The notes: generated by a model from the sequence alone, not told the origin. A stretch of 64,000 nt of DNA from Catajapyx aquilonaris (GCA_000934665.2 KZ538036.1:1-64000); one strand, 5' to 3'. Positions 3,361-64,000 are shown, counted from the first letter of the stretch. Made by a program: numbers and translations.

Positions 3361-53167
<49,807 letters not shown>

Positions 53168-53268
53168 TTTCGCCCCGACTGATCCCGACCGATCACATGG
53201 AGAGGCGGGGGGAAGGAAGGCCAAGAGCAGTGGAGGGGGGGTGGACGAGGGATGGGGGGGATTGGGGG

Positions 53269-53486
53269 NNNNNNNNNNNNNNNNNNNNNNNNNNNNNNNN
53301 NNNNNNNNNNNNNNNNNNNNNNNNNNNNNNNNNNNNNNNNNNNNNNNNNNNNNNNNNNNNNNNNNNNNNNNNNNNNNNNNNNNNNNNNNNNNNNNNNNNN
53401 NNNNNNNNNNNNNNNNNNNNNNNNNNNNNNNNNNNNNNNNNNNNNNNNNNNNNNNNNNNNNNNNNNNNNNNNNNNNNNNNNNNNNN
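53269..53486. other. Assembly gap (218 N) flanked by poly-G
   Basis: N run; hides the PDE3 5' UTR/promoter and possibly extra N-terminal codons. Confidence 1.
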
Positions 53487-53635
53487 GGGGGGGGGGGGTC
53501 AATTACTGTATTAAAAAGTGCATTGTATTAAATTGATATCCTATTGTAGTTTATACACATTCTCATGATGATGATGATGATGATGATAGTCCTTTGGTGG
53601 TGGTGGTGGTGATATTTATATAATAAGTAAATTTC

Positions 53636-54005: not shown

Positions 54006-54613
54006 GTATAAATAAATTTCTAGTAGGGTTATTACTTTTTGAGATATCGACATGCCGTACAGTACTGGACGTCTGGACATATTAGCAGTCCGTTTATTTT
54101 TGTTATTGGGAGTTCAAAATAGGCAAATTTTATCTACACGTAATGAGCGATTTTTTCATAATTTAGGTTTGGGGCAACTGTAATCACCAATCAGCCATTT
54201 CACTAATATGATGCAATAATTAACACTTTTCTTTTTAAATTACAAAAACTGCAAACTAGCTAGTTCAAATATGGCGGGAAGTCTTTGACTGCATGAAACA
54301 TGGCTGCCTTTTTTGAAGCCTGCGCCATATGCCTATATGCGCGTTTTAATTGCATCATCCCTGGTTCTGAGAATCATTGTCCGACGAACTTCGTTGAAAC
54401 GTTCGTCTGTCGTTTTCCGCATTGTTCTGAGAGTCCGTCGAACTCACCGTTGTTTGAAGGAGCATCGGTCGTACACCCAGGTACAGGAGAAGGTGGCACT
54501 GTTTGGAGGGCATAAACTTCGATTGCCCTACTTTGCATTGTTAGGAAGTTCGTTACATGTCGACATTCTAGTTTAATTTTTTTGTGTTTGTAATTTCTAG
54601 TTAATTTAGAGAC

Positions 54614-55112
54614 ATGCCGAAGGTACGTCGTAGTCGCAAGCCACCTCCAGATGGTTGGGAGCTGATTGAGCCGACGCTGGAAGAGCTGGAGCAGAAGATG
54701 CGAGAGGCGGAGACGGAGCCTAACGAGGGGAAGAGGAAGGTCGAGAGCCTCTGGCCCATATTTAAGATCCATCATCAGCGGTCCAGGTACATCTTCGACC
54801 TCTTCTTCAGGCGGAAGGCCATCTCCAGGGGTAAGTCAACACACGTCATGGACACAAAAGGGACGAAACTGACTTGTTCATTCCGCATTTGCAGAGCTGT
54901 ACGATTACTGCATCAAATCTGGGATTGCCGACAAGAATCTGATTGCCAAATGGAAGAAACAAGGGTACGAGAATCTCTGCTGCCTCCGCTGCATCCAGAC
55001 CCGTGACACCAATTTCGGGACAAACTGTATCTGCCGGGTGCCCAAGAACAAACTGGAGGAAGGTCGCATCGTTGAGTGCATCCATTGCGGATGCCGAGGA
55101 TGCTCCGGTTAA
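54614..55112 (+). CDS. BUD31: Protein BUD31 homolog (G10), spliceosomal, 144 aa
   Basis: Exons 54614-54830 and 54895-55112 (64-nt GT-AG intron); [22 protein letters not shown]...[27 protein letters not shown]...[12 protein letters not shown]. Confidence 0.98.
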
Positions 55113-55257: not shown

Positions 55258-55407
55258 AATGATTGATAAGACAACCTTGATTGTACCTTGAAGGCACTTA
55301 CGCGTTAGATTAAGTTATCCGAAATGCCAAAAGGCGCGTAGCGATAATGATTTGTACCGATTAAATATCAATTGGCGATACCTTTTACATCAGCAGTTTG
55401 GGAAAAA

Positions 55408-57677
55408 ATGAACCACCTGTTGGAATGGGTCGTTTTATTGGCCTCTCTTTCTATCGCCTGCGGGGCAAGGCCTAATATAATCTTCATAATCGCAGATGAT
55501 TTGGTGAGTAATTGAAACTTGTCGGTACACAATTAAAGTAATATGGAAGGCATAACAAGCAGGCATCTTTTTACTGTAATGGACATGTAATAAACTATTT
55601 GCATATAAGTCTTGCATCATGTCTTCAAGTCGAAACTACGACGATCATGATTTTAGGGCTGGAACGATGTAGGTTTCCACGGCTCGGACCAGATCCCCAC
55701 TCCTAACATTGATGCTTTGGCGTACAATGGAATTATTCTTAACAATTACTACGTGACTCCGCTATGCTCGCCATCCAGAAGCGCAATTCTCACTGGAAAA
55801 CATCCCATTCATACAGGTAGGTTCATCCATTCATCTACTTCTATCACACGTTAATTCATCATTTCTAATATTCAAGGAATGCAACACAATGTGATATGGG
55901 CACCTCAACCGGAAGGTTTGCCACTGAGTGAAAAGATAATGCCGCAGTACATGAAGGACTTGGGTTATGTTACTCGCATTGTTGGTAAATGGCATCAGGG
56001 CTTCTACAAAAAGGAATACACGCCCACATTCAGAGGTTTCGATTCTCATTTTGGATACTGGACTGCACATCAAGATTATTACGATCATACCGGAGAAGGA
56101 TTTGTAAGTTGAACATTATTGGTTCCAAACTACATATTTTTGCAGGGTCGTTTGGTTAATTGTTTAAAAACTATCAAGCTGTGGATTAAACCGAATTCTC
56201 ATCATTCATCCCTTTTACTTTTAGGGTTACTGGGGATTGGACATGCGACGTAATATGAGCGTAGCATGGGATACTGCGGGAAAGTATGCGACTGATATGT
56301 ACACAGAAGAGGCAGTGGAGCTGATCTCACAGCATGATGAATCCAAGCCGCTCTTCATGTACTTGGCCCATTTGGCATGTCATTCGGCCCATCCGTACCA
56401 ACCTATGCAAGCTCCAGCTGAAGTTGTAGCCAAGCTGGACTGGATTAAGGATTACCAGAGACGGATCTTTGCTGGTAAAGTGTGCTGCTGTTTTAGTCGG
56501 TTGGTGTCTGTGTAATTCGTGATTTAATAACAGCGATGGTGACAAAATTGGATGAATCTGTTGGGGAGGTGATGACAGCTCTGAAAGAAAAAGGCATGCT
56601 GGAAAATTCCATTGTCATTTTCTCGACTGATAACGGAGGAGCGCCTGGTGGAATGAATGACAATCATGCCTCAAACTGGCCATTGAGAGGTGTAAGTCAT
56701 AAAGATTTTTTGAGTTGTCAAGCTCAAAACCGACGCTTTCATTTCTGCAGGGTAAGGTGTCGCATTTTGAAGGCGGAGTCAGAGGCACCGCATGCATTTG
56801 GAGTCCACTCTTGAAACAGCATAATGTCGTTTCAAACCAAATGATGCATCTGCAGGACTGGCTTCCAACACTCTACTCTGCTGCAGGTAATTGCTGTCAA
56901 ATATTTTTGCAACCTCATTTTAAAATGCTAATGCTAATTTTGGACTATTGCTCTACCATTACACCTGAAAATGCAAAATAACCTGATGTTATCAACAGGG
57001 GGAGACCCAAAGGATTTGGGTGAAATTGATGGATTGGATATGTGGAAAACACTGTCCGATGGAAGTGCCTCTCCTAGGACAGAGTTTGTCGTTCAGATCA
57101 ACCCAATTCTACAAAATGGAGCCATCCGAGTAGGGGACTATAAGATCGTGTTTGGAACGCAGTGTAAGTATAGCCACATCTTTTCGACCACAATGCAAAC
57201 CTAATGAGCACGTGATTACGTGAATTAGTGCCACTTATTCTGGATGACATCTACTACGCCAGCTGGTTCGGACCATCTGGAAGACACAACCTGTCCCTGA
57301 ACCCTCTTCCGGATTACAATGTGTCTGAAGTGCTAACCAGCCCTGCAGGAGTCGCCTTGTCATCTGTTGTGACCCCACCAAACCCAGACCAAGTCTTGGA
57401 AATCCGCGAGGAAACTCAGATCCACTGCACTGGAGAGCCTCCCATATATCCGTGCAATCCGAACCATCAGATATGCATGTACAACATCAAGGAGGACCCT
57501 TGTGAGCATCACGACATTTCCACAGAGCAGCCTGATGTCTTTGATAAAATGATGCAGCGGTTTAGGGAGATCAATGCCACTGTGGTTCCACCTATGAACG
57601 AACCATTTGATACCATGTCAAGCCCTAAGTACTGGGGCTATGCTTGGAGCTGTTGGAAGGACGAGAACCCAGAATAA
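55408..57677 (+). CDS. ARSB: Arylsulfatase B-like (ARSB/I/J group) sulfatase, copy 1, 546 aa
   Basis: Exons 55408-55503, 55657-55816, 55877-56103, 56225-56474, 56534-56691, 56751-56886, 56999-57163, 57229-57677; signal peptide, [17 protein letters not shown], formylglycine motif [29 protein letters not shown]. Confidence 0.93.
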
Positions 57678-58361
57678 TATTCCCGCAAGTAGGATCCATT
57701 AGCAAAATCAGTTTCTTCTCAAATGGTCCTATTTGTGTACTGAATAATAAATGCAGCTAATCCGGCAGTGGCATGAATGAGTTATTATTGTCCCAATTGT
57801 GGTGCGGAACTACCACACATTCTAACTGCGAACAATTCTTCCTTCCTGGCAATTATTTTGCTACTTTTTATACACACTTCAAATGTCAACACAATGTTTA
57901 TAACCTCCTGGTTTTTGATGTACAAGGTCCTACAAGTGTCTGTGAGATTAAATACCAGTGTATTGCAAAATTTCATACAATATTGGCCTCTGCTCACCTT
58001 TAATCAGTCAATGGTTGCTCATCACGTGAAATGTTCGAAGTCATTGCTTCCGTGAGTACAGAGAATTTTCAAATCATCACACTTACCCACTGAATGTGCA
58101 TCTTTTACAAACTTCTTTAATTCATTAATTCAGTTGAAAATTCATGTACAAAAAATTGGTACACTGCTAATTTTTCATGTACTGTCCATGTACAGTTCTA
58201 ACGTTCAAGGTTCACTGCACAGCAATAAGTGATTGACATAAGTTTTTTGAGTGCACTTGTTAGATTAAGTTGGCTGATATGGCAAAGATATGTAATGATA
58301 ATGACTTGCACCTCTTAAATATAGCTAGACCATGCCTAGTGCATCTTCACTTTGAGAAAAA

Positions 58362-60747
58362 ATGACCAAGCTGTTGGAATTGGTCATTTTCTTTGCCTCT
58401 CTTTCTATAGCATGCGGGGCAAGGCCAAATATAATCTTCATATTAGCAGATGATTTGGTGAGTAATTAAAATTTGTTGGTATACCGGTACATATTTAGAG
58501 CAATGACCATGATTGAATTTGTTAGACTTTTAACGTTTTGTGTTATTAGTGAATTGTCATAAGGAGGCATCTTTTTGTCATAACTCCAAATCATAAACTG
58601 CCATGGACTTAACATTTTATGTACCGCATTTGCATAGAGGTGAACACATCATATTGTTTTCAAATCAAACTCATAAAGATCGTTATTTCAGGGCTGGAAT
58701 GATGTAGGTTTCCACGGCTCGGACCAGATCCCCACTCCCAACATTGATGCTTTGGCATACAATGGAATTATTCTTAACAATTATTACGTGACTCCGCTAT
58801 GCTCGCCATCCAGAAGCGCAATCCTCACTGGAAAACATCCCATTCATACAGGTAGCATAGTCATTATTAATAGCACCAGATTTTAGGCTATCACACACTG
58901 GTTAATCTTTATAATTCAAGGAATGCAACACAATGTGATATGGGCACCTCAACCGCAAGGTTTGCCATTAAACGAGAAGATTTTACCACAGTACATGAAG
59001 GACTTGGGTTACGTTACTCGCATTGTTGGTAAATGGCATCAGGGCTTCTACAAAAAGGAGTACACGCCCACATTCAGAGGTTTCGATTCCCACTTCGGAT
59101 ACTGGACTGCACATCAAGATTATTACGAACACTCTGGAGAAGAATATGTAAGTTGAATGCATTACATTACTGAATTATTACATATTTGTGCATGGCGCAG
59201 TATGGTAAACTAGAGGTGTTTGGTTAATAATTTAAAACAAAATGCGTTAAAGTCAAACTTAATGCTAAGGATTAAACTAAATTCTCATCATTCATCCCAT
59301 TTACTTTTAGGGTTACTGGGGATTGGACATGCGACGTAACATGAGCGTAGCATGGGACACTGTGGGAAAGTACACCACTGATTTGTTCACTGAAGAAGCA
59401 GTGGAGCTGATCTCACAGCATGATGACTCCAAGCCGCTCTTCATGTACTTGGCCCATTTGGCAGTTCATTCGGCCCATCCGTACCAACCTATGCAAGCTC
59501 CAGCTGAAGTTGTAGCCAAGCTGGACTGGATTAAGGATTACCAGAGACGGATCTTTGCTGGTGAAATGTGCTGCTGTTTTAGTCAGTTGGTATCTGTGTA
59601 ATTCGTGACTTATTAATAACAGCGATGGTGACAAAATTGGATGAATCTGTTGGGGAGGTGATGACAGCTCTGAAGGAAAAAGGCATGCTGGAGAATTCCA
59701 TTGTCATTTTTTCAACTGACAATGGAGGACCACCAGGTGGATTTAATAACAATCATGCCTCGAACTGGCCATTGAGAGGTGTAAGTCAGTATGTTATTTG
59801 TAGTTGTCTAGCTTTAATCCAAAACAATAATTTCTGCAGGGTAAGGTGACTTATTTCGAGGGCGGAGTCAGAGGCACCGCATGCATTTGGAGTCCACTCC
59901 TGAAGCAGCATAATGCCGTGTCAAACCAAATGATGCATCTGCAGGACTGGCTTCCAACACTCTACTCTGCTGCAGGTAACTGTTGTTGTCTTAAATAACG
60001 TCAAGATTTTACAGAAGAATCATTATATTATGGTACCTGAAAATACACAGTAGCCTAATCTGATTAACAGGAGGAGACCCAAAGGATTTGGGTGAAATTG
60101 ATGGATTGGATATGTGGAAAACACTGTCCGATGGAAGTTCTTCTCCTAGGACAGAGTTTGTCGTTCAGATCGACCCAATTCTACAAACTGGAGCTATCCG
60201 AGTCGGAGATTACAAGATTGTGTTTGGAACACAGGGTGAGTAGTCACATCTTTTCAAACACAATGCGAGCGTAATGAGCATGTGATTTCCTGAAATAGCG
60301 ACTCGCATTCAGGATGACACCTACTACTCCACCTGGTTTGGACCATCCGGAAGACACAACCTGTCCCTGAACCCTCTTCCGGATTACAATGTGTCCGAAG
60401 TGCTAACCAGCCCTGCAGGAGTCGCCTTGTCATCTGTTGTGACCCCACCAAACCCAGACCAAGTCTTGGAAATCCGAGAGGAAACCCAGATCCGCTGCAC
60501 TGGAGAGCCTCCCATATATCCGTGCAACCCAAACAATCAGATATGCATGTACAACATAAAGGAGGACCCTTGTGAGCATCACGACATTTCCACAGAGCAG
60601 CCTGATGTCTTTGATAAAATGATGCAGCGATTTAGGGAGATCAATGCCACTGTGGTTCCACCTATGAATCAACCGATTGATCCCATGGGACACCCGAAAT
60701 ACTGGGGATATGCCTGGAGCTGCTGGAAGGACGAGAACCCAGAATAA
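58362..60747 (+). CDS. ARSB: Arylsulfatase B-like sulfatase, copy 2 (tandem paralogue), 546 aa
   Basis: Exons 58362-58457, 58692-58851, 58921-59147, 59311-59560, 59623-59780, 59840-59975, 60071-60235, 60299-60747; same exon lengths and motifs as copy 1, frame intact. Confidence 0.93.
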
Positions 60748-61650
60748 TAAATGTACAAGTACGATCCATTAGAAAAATAAATTTGTTCTCAAAAGGTCCT
60801 ACCAGTATCATATTATGCAACAGTAATTGTGCAGTTCTTATCCCCTTCGATGGGATTGCGTTGTTAAAATGGGTAAACAGATATGGGAATGTGGTCCTCT
60901 TCGACGAAAAATAATTAATGAAAATGAGAAAATATTAGTGGAAAAGGCTGAAACACAATATAAATGAGGTTGAAGTAATACAATTGAATCATCATACGTT
61001 GCATAATTTATGGATGGTTCCATAATACAGGACATTGTTCGATATAGGAAATAAAGCTTAGTTTCCAAATTGCATTGTAAAGACACTCCTGAGATTCACA
61101 GACTCATATAAAGTTCAATTAGGCATTGTGCATTTATGGAAAACCGTGTTTCCAACACAAAAAAATACTGCTTCGAAAACTTTGTCGCATCACAGTTGGT
61201 TCAGGTGTCTAATCTACATTGAGGAACACACGCCCACAAGTGATATCCAAAATAGTTCACCACCTCGTTGCCCTCTTTTAAATATATCGGATCACTCCTG
61301 CATAATTATTATAAATGAAACCCTACTCTCTCCTGGGAAATATAATCATTAAGAAAGGCACATTTATGCATAAATTGCAACATGGCAGCAACACCTTTTG
61401 GTCATTCGGATGTAATCCGAGGCGCATGAGTGTTTATTTGCTCCTCTAATAATCGGTCTCGCACTTGGAAGTTTGTCATGCCAGCTATACATTGCAGGTG
61501 AAACTCTCTGGATGTTAAAATTGGCTGAGAAAATATGCTGACATTCTTATCATATTGGATGGATATTGCGGACTCATTGCATTTAAAAAATTGTCACAAC
61601 GTGTTGGAAATAATAAAAAAACGTACCCAAATACTGCATAGAATCTGTTA

Positions 61651-63822
61651 TCACGTGGTCCCCGGCCGATCCTCGGAGGGCGTTTCATCCTCACTTTTTT
61701 TAACACTTCCAGTGGATTTGGAAGAACCTGTCCTCAATAGCTTAATATTACTGGAATCTTGGAGTTTAGGGGCAGAAGCACTGGAACTGAGCCCCTTCTT
61801 TATCTGCGAGGCGAATTGACGGAAGGTTCTCTTTGGACGTTGGGAAGGAGATCCCATTGAAGGAGATCTTGAAGTGAGCTCCTCCTTCTCAATGCTGGGG
61901 ATACTGTCAGTGTCAGGGCCTCTGTATGGACGCTCCCGAGGCTCAGATAGAGTTGGACTGTTCTCAAGGCTGGGATGGTCCGCTCCCTGAAATATGCGAA
62001 CGATTTGTGTTTCACATTGCAATATGTCAGCAAAAAGCAAAATTTTATAATGAGTGAATGCCTACCTGCATGTCTGATGCAAATATTTGGAAAACAGTCG
62101 GTCGAGGAGGTTCCCCCTTGACTGACACAATGGTAGTCAGATTCTCGTCCAGTTCAGGTATAACGTCAGTAAGTACAGCAGGTCTTGCAGACAGATTCCC
62201 ACTACTTGGGATGTGCTCGATGCCTTTGGTATCTTCCGCTAGGCTACGCTCTCTGGTGAAGACCCTTCGGATAATAGAAGCAATGGACCCAGAGGCAGCC
62301 CTGTTCAACTGGCCAGTACTGCTGGCCAAGGTTGACCTACTGGCATTTGACCTAAGGCTTGGTCGGCGGGAGTGGCGGCTGCTGAGGCGGCTCAGTCGGC
62401 TTAGGCTGCGCTTTATGGGTGAGTCAGATGGGCTGCCCTGCATTGCACACATTTATTATTATTGTGTGTGTACAGTATTTGGCCAGTATGTCATCAGTAT
62501 TATAGTCACATATTCACTGCACTTACTGTATGTCACATTGCGATACACAGGAACAAAGTTATGATTTCCCCAAAGTCCTTTCAACATGAACCCTCACTCA
62601 ATCAGTTCAACATTTTTAAAAAAAGCCAAGAAAAGAAATGGTTAGTAAAAGCCACCACCTCTGGTTAGTACAACTTACAAGACAGCTTACAGGGGAGTCA
62701 AAGACGTCGTCTTTGTCAGGGGCTAGGAGGGCTTCCTCTTCTGGCACCGCAATCCTCGCAGTGGATGCCTCTGGAGGCTCCTCTCTGTACTGCTCGGCTG
62801 CCAGTGTGTAAGGAAGCTCCACTGGAAGAACCTCATCCCAATACTGATCCTTTATCAGCTCAGGATGCTCATGATGCATTTCGTCCACTATTAAGTACGA
62901 CACCTGAGAATTTTTTTAAAATGAAAAAAGTGGGTTATATTGCATGAAGGCAATCAGTAGGATTTATCAGAAGGGAAAATCACTTGAATCCCAAATTGTT
63001 TACATAATATGATGCATTTTCAACCAGTAACAAATGCACTGGATTTCTGAAGTGATTTTACCTTTCCTATAACTGCACTATGATCAAGTGTAATGTATGT
63101 TGTCTGATCTTCATCACTTCCAATAATTATTGCACAGATATTACACAATATGGCTTTATTAATAATTGTCCAGAATGCACTGAATTTATCTGTGCTACAA
63201 TTTCACTGCCATTTGGTGACATCTTATTATTCCATAGTTATTAAAGGCTTTCATATCTCAGTGTTACAATTCATAATAGTACATTATTGAGATTGATATT
63301 ATCTAATATACTGCACTGTCATACATGATCCTACATGCTATGTTTTTTTGACAACATTATTACTGCACTTGTGTTGAGTGTTTATTACATTCTACATGAT
63401 AAACCACTAACTATATTAACTAAAATAAACCACACACAGTTACTTCCTGGGACATGTTGGTGTGAATCAGAGGAATCGCTCGACTGCACTTGCACACACT
63501 TTTAGTCAATGGAGAATAAAGCGACAACGTCTGTATATGTACTCACAGTGAGGTTGCGGTCTGTAAGCCAGTTGAGTTCAAAATCATCATCGTCATCTCC
63601 GAAGGGATTCAACAGGGACTCGGCTACTTTTAACCAGCCCATATAAAAAAAGAACTGCAGTAGCAGGGGGGGAAGCGCTTTAATATGGGGGAACACTAAT
63701 CAGGTGGGACTCACCTTCAGGTTTCTATCCACCAACCAGCTGATCTCAAAATCATCATCGTCCTCACCGAAAGGGTTAATCAGCGTCTCAGCTACCTTCA
63801 GCCAACCCATATAGAAAAAGAA
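61651..63822 (-). CDS. Best1: Bestrophin Ca2+-activated chloride channel, 3' part (5' exons lie outside the window)
   Basis: Exons 63822-63715 (A) or 63654-63547 (B), then 62903-62691, 62437-62066, 61986-61651; motifs [17 protein letters not shown][ED]DDDDFE and [30 protein letters not shown]. Confidence 0.93.
63547..63654 (-). CDS. Best1: Bestrophin Ca2+-clasp exon, variant B (tandem duplicate)
   Basis: [36 protein letters not shown]; 108 nt; acceptor ctactgcag, donor ACT|GTGAGT. Confidence 0.88.
63715..63822 (-). CDS. Best1: Bestrophin Ca2+-clasp exon, variant A
   Basis: [36 protein letters not shown]; 108 nt; acceptor ctcttgtag, donor AAG|GTGAGT. Confidence 0.9.
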
Positions 63823-64000
63823 CTACAAGAGAGGAAACAAAGGTGCTGTAGAGAAAGAGACAGTTGAGAATAACAGACATGCTGTTGTGATGACACCAAG
63901 CCCAAGAGACAGGAATGTCCTTTAAAAATCAGACAACTTTACGTGCAATCTTTTTTGGCACTCAATCTTGCACATATTCATATTAACATTATTAACTGTC

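Follow-up and report, generated by a model that had tools for sequence, protein, structure and literature searches.

Can an arthropod bestrophin exchange the part of the channel that carries its Ca2+ clasp by splicing in one or the other of two neighboring exons? The question arises from a 64,000-nt stretch of DNA of Catajapyx aquilonaris (GCA_000934665.2 KZ538036.1:1-64000, here called the window), in which two tandem exons, termed A and B, encode two versions of this segment. Bestrophin channels use the Ca2+ clasp as their activation switch, and human disease mutations have a hot spot there. The window contains just the final portion of the Bestrophin domain, the N-terminal exons being located beyond base 64000.

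Two Tandem Exons of Equal Length and Phase

Exon A (63715–63822, minus strand) is 108 nt long and in phase 0-0, has a TAG acceptor and a GTGAGT donor, and is the copy present in the observed mRNA. Exon B (63547–63654, minus strand), which is skipped in this mRNA, is likewise 108 nt long and in phase 0-0, with an open frame, a CAG acceptor, and a GTGAGT donor. The intron between them (63655–63714, minus strand) is 60 nt long and runs from GTGAGT to CAG; no joint that removes it is found in the public run described below. Two 108-nt phase 0-0 exons, 60 nt apart and each with a YAG acceptor and a GTGAGT donor, had been called in the original prediction for this locus, and we reproduced their coordinates and peptides exactly.

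The copies are identical at 80 of 108 nucleotides and 29 of 36 amino acids, with no stop codon or indel, and 13 of the 29 identical residues use different (silent) codons, the same counts as had been given before. The repeat has a 168-nt period and a 119-nt unit, which takes in the exon and, at either end, ∼5 nt of splice signal. When we searched for further copies with tblastn, as had been suggested, the 64-kb window, which ends 178 nt upstream of A, returned A and B only and no third copy. In the A-B intron, a branch-point-like motif (CTGAT) lies at a distance of 15 nt from the A donor, the pyrimidine tract in front of B is C-rich, and the acceptor tract of A is T-rich. The donor context is better in A (AAG/GTGAGT) than in B (ACT/GTGAGT). 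Passages of PMC3923563 name equal or similar length, homology, the same frame, and conserved splice sites as the marks of mutually exclusive exons (MXEs). A and B are neighboring, equal in length, homologous, in the same frame, and flanked by compatible, conserved splice sites.

Downstream of B lies a 643-nt intron (62904–63546, minus strand), which forms part of an 811-nt intron in the A-form mRNA. It is followed by a constitutive exon (62691–62903, minus strand, 71 codons; joints seen in RNA) that encodes the conserved cytosolic segment after the clasp, by an exon for a serine-rich C-terminal tail (62066–62437, minus strand, 124 codons; joints 62436/62690 and 61985/62065), and by the last coding exon (61651–61986, minus strand, 111 codons and a TGA stop), with a 3′ UTR reaching to ∼60997. 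No Pfam family matched the serine-rich tail exon, and the C-terminal exon, used as a query for close relatives, yielded 1020 candidates, none of them at E ≤ 0.01 (no relatives of at least 218 aa).

Both Copies Encode the Ca2+ Clasp with the Same Direct Ligands

Both peptides match the Bestrophin family (Pfam PF01062, cut-off 24.2 bits), A with 70.4 bits over profile positions 281–316 of 324 and B with 68.1 bits over positions 281–315 of 324. They align without gaps to residues 281–315 of human BEST1 (PDB IDs 8d1o and 8d1i), such that exon position i corresponds to BEST1 residue 280 + i, and exon positions 13 and 20 are therefore the equivalents of residues 293 and 300. The encoded segment begins in the last part of TM4, continues through the Ca2+-clasp loop, and reaches into the helix after it, and its original placement at BEST1 ∼281–316, covering the TM4 end and the clasp, is borne out by the Pfam match and by the 8d1o and 8d1i alignments. 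Both copies contain the sequence NPFG(E/D)DDDDF, aligned to BEST1 296–305, and the equivalents of Asn-296, Asp-301, and Asp-304 as well as the whole acidic run are present in A and B.

Comparison of A with B revealed the changes T293S, I295L, E300D, I307L, S308N, V311T, and K316T (BEST1 numbering), among them the T/S and E/D differences at the 293 and 300 equivalents that had been read from the sequence before. According to passages of PMC8496536, Ca2+ is directly coordinated by the side chains of Asp-301 and Asp-304 and by the carbonyls of Ala-10, Gln-293, and Asn-296, whereas Glu-300, Asp-302, and Asp-303 make no direct contact with the ion. Since Asp-301, Asp-304, and Asn-296 are common to A and B, residue 293 contributes its backbone only, and Glu-300 is not a ligand, the direct ligands defined in these passages are the same in both copies. 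The differences map to the second shell and to the following helix, and none of them concerns a side-chain Ca2+ ligand. The proposal that A and B provide “different Ca2+ sensors” is thus too strong when held against the ligands in that source. A differing Ca2+ sensitivity of the A and B forms is plausible, and mixing of the two isoforms within one pentamer is speculative. The segment resembles the vertebrate BEST1/BEST2 clasp (8d1i, 8d1o, 4rdq, 6vx5; passages of PMC8496536) in its gapless alignment over 281–315 and in Asn-296, Asp-301, and Asp-304; it differs in that the vertebrate clasp segment is known in a single version, whereas two versions are found here.

To which bestrophins the gene belongs is indicated by the next exon (62691–62903), which matches 379 of 439 candidate proteins at E ≤ 0.001. 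All named proteins in the 120 matches listed are insect bestrophins, with 65–81% identity, and an exon of the neighboring arylsulfatase gene is nearest to arthropod clusters. Because every named match listed is from insects, we assign the gene, as judged by these similarities, to the arthropod bestrophins (Ca2+-activated anion channel family) and not to vertebrate BEST1, which serves as a numbering reference only. The protein collections searched contained no protein of Catajapyx aquilonaris or a close relative.

Exon B Appears to Be Constrained at the Protein Level

We compared A and B by the Nei-Gojobori method, the dN/dS-type check that had been called for, and found 16.3 synonymous differences at 20.3 synonymous sites (pS 0.80, beyond saturation) against 11.7 nonsynonymous differences at 87.7 sites (pN 0.13; Fisher test on rounded substitution counts, p = 1.7e-8). 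When A was evolved neutrally in a simulation, an open frame together with at least 29 of 36 identities was retained with P = 0.37 at d = 0.1, 0.012 at d = 0.2, and 1.3e-4 at d = 0.3, and in 0 of 200,000 cases at d = 0.5. As synonymous saturation puts the divergence far above 0.3 per site, B was held by selection on its protein sequence through most of its history as a duplicate.

A position-specific scoring matrix (PSSM) was built from 161 distinct clasp segments of retrieved relatives. A scores 132.8 and B 133.1, with a consensus score of 147.0 and a range of 105.6–147.0 for the real segments, 56 of 161 of which fall below either copy. Seven random residue changes (stops excluded) were made to A 20,000 times without once reaching the score of B, and the reverse test gives the same result. 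The five departures of B from the consensus all fall in variable columns of the family. By these scores, neither copy looks more decayed than the other. The original reading of an old duplication with purifying selection on both copies is therefore supported by pS and pN, by the PSSM, and by the simulation, with the qualification that a recent neutral phase of B, with d up to ∼0.1, is possible.

Spliced RNA Joins Exon A Directly to the Next Exon

Transcripts were represented by one public run at the contig level, which is not recorded as RNA yet proved to contain spliced contigs. The run contained 0.56 of the sampled words of 61600–64000, and three of its contigs matched 61000–64000 with 0 differing letters. 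Contig 1 (1634 nt, depth 11.2) is spliced, with blocks at 61000–61985, 62065–62436, 62690–62900, and 63712–63773, and reaches 3 nt past 61000. All three joints have CT..AC ends, corresponding to GT..AG on the minus strand. When the cut is shifted by +3, the last joint leads from 63715 to 62903: the next exon follows A without interruption, and a single 811-nt intron, made up of the 60-nt intron, B, and the 643-nt intron, is removed. The junction from 63715 to 62903 that had been predicted is thus present, an A-only mRNA exists, and B is not a constitutive exon. Constant co-inclusion of A and B, which would have spoken against the original prediction, is refuted, as contig 1 skips B. A 79-nt intron of the same gene is also spliced in this run.

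Two further contigs are unspliced: contig 2 (255 nt, depth 2.1), which reads across the 62903 acceptor, and contig 3 (266 nt, depth 4.3), which is collinear with the genome from 63445 to 63710. Contig 3 spans B, 56 of the 60 bases of the A-B intron, and 102 nt downstream of B, and is unbroken at the splice sites of B. The pair is not an allelic artefact of the assembly, a concern raised at the outset: A and B differ at 28 of 108 nucleotides, and an RNA-derived contig spans B with 0 differences. No joint at a splice site of B and no A-B joint (63715–63654) were reported in this one contig-level run, in which contigs drop rare forms, coverage of A may be thin since contig 1 ends inside this exon, and 63138–63444 and the bases above 63773 are without cover. 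Of the junctions proposed as a check, the one from 63715 to 62903 was therefore seen and the one from 63715 to 63654 was absent, both as expected, whereas the expected B junctions were not found in the run. Use of B in mRNA is probable from the selection acting on its codons.

A Candidate Mutually Exclusive Pair

Taken together, we lean, with little more than even confidence, toward the view that A and B form a mutually exclusive exon pair that arose by tandem duplication in an arthropod bestrophin gene. A would be the default exon, with its better donor context, its T-rich pyrimidine tract, and its direct splice to 62903. B would be a substitute kept by selection and used in a tissue, at a stage, or under a condition outside the run, and a subunit made with B would keep the direct Ca2+ ligands and differ in second-shell residues. 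We infer that the two exons exclude each other and that the A and B forms differ in Ca2+ sensitivity or gating. Of the mutual exclusion claimed originally, the part that held in the one run is that co-inclusion is not constant, whereas B spliced into mRNA was not seen there. A more far-reaching version, in which B replaces A in particular cells, the 60-nt spacing makes joining of A to B physically impossible, and the clasp versions, which differ at 293, at 300, and at four positions of the helix that follows, provide subunits with different Ca2+ affinity or gating that co-assemble in one pentamer, is in our judgment doubtful.

What might keep A and B apart? A suggested cause is the 60-nt intron, which would place the branch point used by the B acceptor too close to the A donor. 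Exons 2 and 3 of alpha-tropomyosin are the classic MXE pair of this steric-interference type; in the Catajapyx pair, the exons are 60 nt apart and the best branch-like motif, CTGAT, is located 15 nt from the A donor. Passages of PMC5740500 set the criterion for steric interference at a donor-to-branch-point distance of <50 bp and report it for 57 (9%) of the human clusters analyzed there. In a 60-nt intron any branch point lies <50 nt from the A donor, so that this distance is necessarily reached by the branch point of B; the <50 criterion is a human one, and the branch point is a motif guess. Unlike in the human pairs, the intron has to be seen against those of Drosophila and other short-intron arthropods, which splice introns of ∼60 nt normally. 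Such introns, and the 79-nt intron that this gene itself splices, leave steric exclusion unproven.

A choice between A and B through RNA structure was considered and rejected, the fold of 63440–63900 having a z-score of 0.58, with 76 of 100 shuffles folding as well. An 11-nt, 91% complementary, AU-rich inverted repeat pairs the 5′ end of B (63638–63648) with the middle of the 60-nt intron (63679–63689). The pairing would loop out the pyrimidine tract and acceptor of B, and the repeat is within chance expectation.

Among the other readings, the one in which B is a retired exon, through most of its history a working alternative or the original, that is no longer spliced and has not yet decayed, is possible but in our estimate improbable. 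B is skipped in the sole RNA evidence and is present there in unspliced RNA only, but one contig-level run cannot show absence. Its donor has a weaker exon context (ACT/GT) than that of A (AAG/GT), and a threonine at position 31, as in B, is found in 1 of the 161 distinct segments; A, however, bears an equally rare residue (serine at position 28, 1 of 161), and B retains its two splice sites, its frame, and all conserved columns, with profile scores equal to those of A. A neutral phase with d up to ∼0.1 would be compatible with the simulation (P = 0.37–0.88).

A non-coding role, with B conserved as a decoy exon or as a splicing-regulatory element for the long intron after A, would account for strong splice signals in an exon that is nonetheless skipped, and the 11-nt, 91% inverted repeat between the B 5′ end and the 60-nt intron could be read in the same way. 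We consider it quite improbable, as the codon-wise pattern of 13 silent changes, saturated synonymous sites, and replacements in variable columns is a signature of translation, and the fold is no better than that of shuffled sequences. Least probable of all is that some transcripts contain both exons and encode a subunit with a duplicated TM4 end and clasp. Double inclusion keeps the frame (108 nt), so that nonsense-mediated decay cannot police or remove an A+B mRNA, and 60-nt introns can be spliced in many arthropods, but a second helix end and clasp would disrupt the topology, and the fold is conserved residue by residue. Moreover, no 63715–63654 joint is seen, the dominant contig skips B, and the annotated proteins examined contain no diverged tandem copy.

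The Clasp Segment and Exon Substitution in Relatives

The mutually exclusive pair that we favor can be compared with known systems. Passages of PMC3923563 and PMC5740500 give Mhc, Dscam, and 14-3-3zeta as examples of MXE clusters in arthropods. Like the MXE clusters of Hatje and Kollmar, A and B are neighboring homologous exons of equal length that encode the same structural element, with one joined and the other skipped; unlike in those clusters, one form is seen in RNA here, no competing RNA structure is detectable, and bestrophins are not among the genes named in these passages.

Another likeness is offered by the bestrophin-4 isoforms X1–X3 of the leafhopper Macrosteles quadrilineatus (P0251, P0098, and P0248; NCBI models), which are equal in length (713 aa) and have one homologous block swapped. 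In contrast to the Catajapyx pair, the block comprises residues 62–115 (TM2 region), with 13–18 differing residues per pair, and the clasp segment is identical in all five Macrosteles quadrilineatus isoforms examined. X1–X3 show a pattern like that of a three-exon MXE cluster at the TM2 exon, and arthropod bestrophins thus appear to use exon substitution, at the TM2 exon. We found no paper describing such a cluster in the leafhopper.

We found no description of a bestrophin with mutually exclusive or tandem-duplicated exons in the literature searched; supplementary tables of MXE catalogues may list one. The word bestrophin has 0 occurrences in the main text of PMC5740500, and the passages of PMC2151570 that deal with splicing or exons concern human variants and RT-PCR primers and make no mention of alternative exons of dBest1. 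Ten 90% clusters of arthropod bestrophins list 47 members, 41 of which were compared (6 fragments or other-species members were left out). None of these 41 isoforms has an alternative clasp within its species, as all isoforms of a species carry the same segment. With the original prediction it had been stated that no described bestrophin MXE was known to its author at this position, which agrees with the literature found and with the 41 annotated isoforms.

We scored 237 proteins (the A and B window peptides included) for the number of clasp segments: 213 have one, 19 none, 4 two, and 1 three. Those with several copies represent either fusions of whole genes or exact repeats, and their copies lie 78–568 aa apart. 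As tandem exon pairs we rejected P0003, P0004, P0124, P0125, and P0126, which are fused whole genes with copies 321–568 aa apart; P0123 was rejected as a diverged pair, being an exact 78-aa repeat, and P0311 as a two-clasp protein, its second stretch being spurious and one copy real. P0275 (341 aa) is a bestrophin fragment with an exact 49-aa tandem repeat over the TM4-clasp segment and comes from another organism; either the exon was duplicated there very recently, or the assembly or gene model is at fault.

When B was searched against 1.84 billion representatives, 1762 matches were obtained at E ≤ 0.001. Two matched stretches occur in 4 of the best 150 of these 1762 (two fused genes, P0275, and P0311), and none of the best 150 contains a diverged 36-aa tandem copy. 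A look for copies in related genomes had also been recommended. The segment is encoded in 14 metagenome loci, 0 of which have a second clasp copy; L001 and L002 are the only close ones (86–89% identity, with flanks of 661–2425 nt), and no close relative of Catajapyx is among the loci. Other contig scans returned 8 weak chance matches in bacterial MAGs (genome contigs) and 0 in viral contigs. A duplicated clasp exon is not a general arthropod feature, the relatives compared including no close kin of Catajapyx.

B is identical to Drosophila bestrophin-4 at 33 of 36 residues, from which we considered that A and B might be two ancient clasp types of different insect paralogues. The idea was dropped, as 81 distinct segments show every combination of the residues at positions 20 and 27. 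In an alignment with P0153 and P0178, several arthropod relatives lack the phase-0 intron before FFFYMGW and have one open reading frame from MGRQ through the clasp. The same intron seems to be present in P0205, where a 63-nt insert (21 codons) is read through in frame. The exon boundary behind the clean 36-codon module is thus itself lineage-variable.

Were the more far-reaching version true, no alternative-exon switch would have been described before it at a bestrophin Ca2+ clasp. A pair of interchangeable clasp exons, both kept by selection, would represent a natural experiment on how second-shell residues tune Ca2+ sensing. Bestrophins would then join the ion channels that have been diversified in arthropods by exon substitution and not by gene duplication. 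The device itself is already well known, above all from arthropod ion-channel and muscle genes, and at present the pair is one more candidate for it, with A confirmed and B based on sequence conservation only.

Neighboring Genes in the Window

Two tandem arylsulfatase genes are located at 55338–57677 and 58292–60747 (plus strand), with a period of ∼3.05 kb and 81–94% identity by block. Their exons match Pfam Sulfatase, and Sulfatase_C remains below threshold (20.2 bits, cut-off 30.9). The second gene converges on the bestrophin gene, and ∼250 nt separate its end from the 3′ end of the bestrophin transcript. An assembly gap (a run of Ns at ∼53260–53500) lies inside a long GC-rich open frame (52175–53527, minus strand) for which Pfam gave no match. 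At 54605–55006 (plus strand, 91.8 bits) lies the first exon of a gene for the splicing factor BUD31, and a cyclic-nucleotide phosphodiesterase exon at 7396–7740 (minus strand; PDEase_I, 42 bits).
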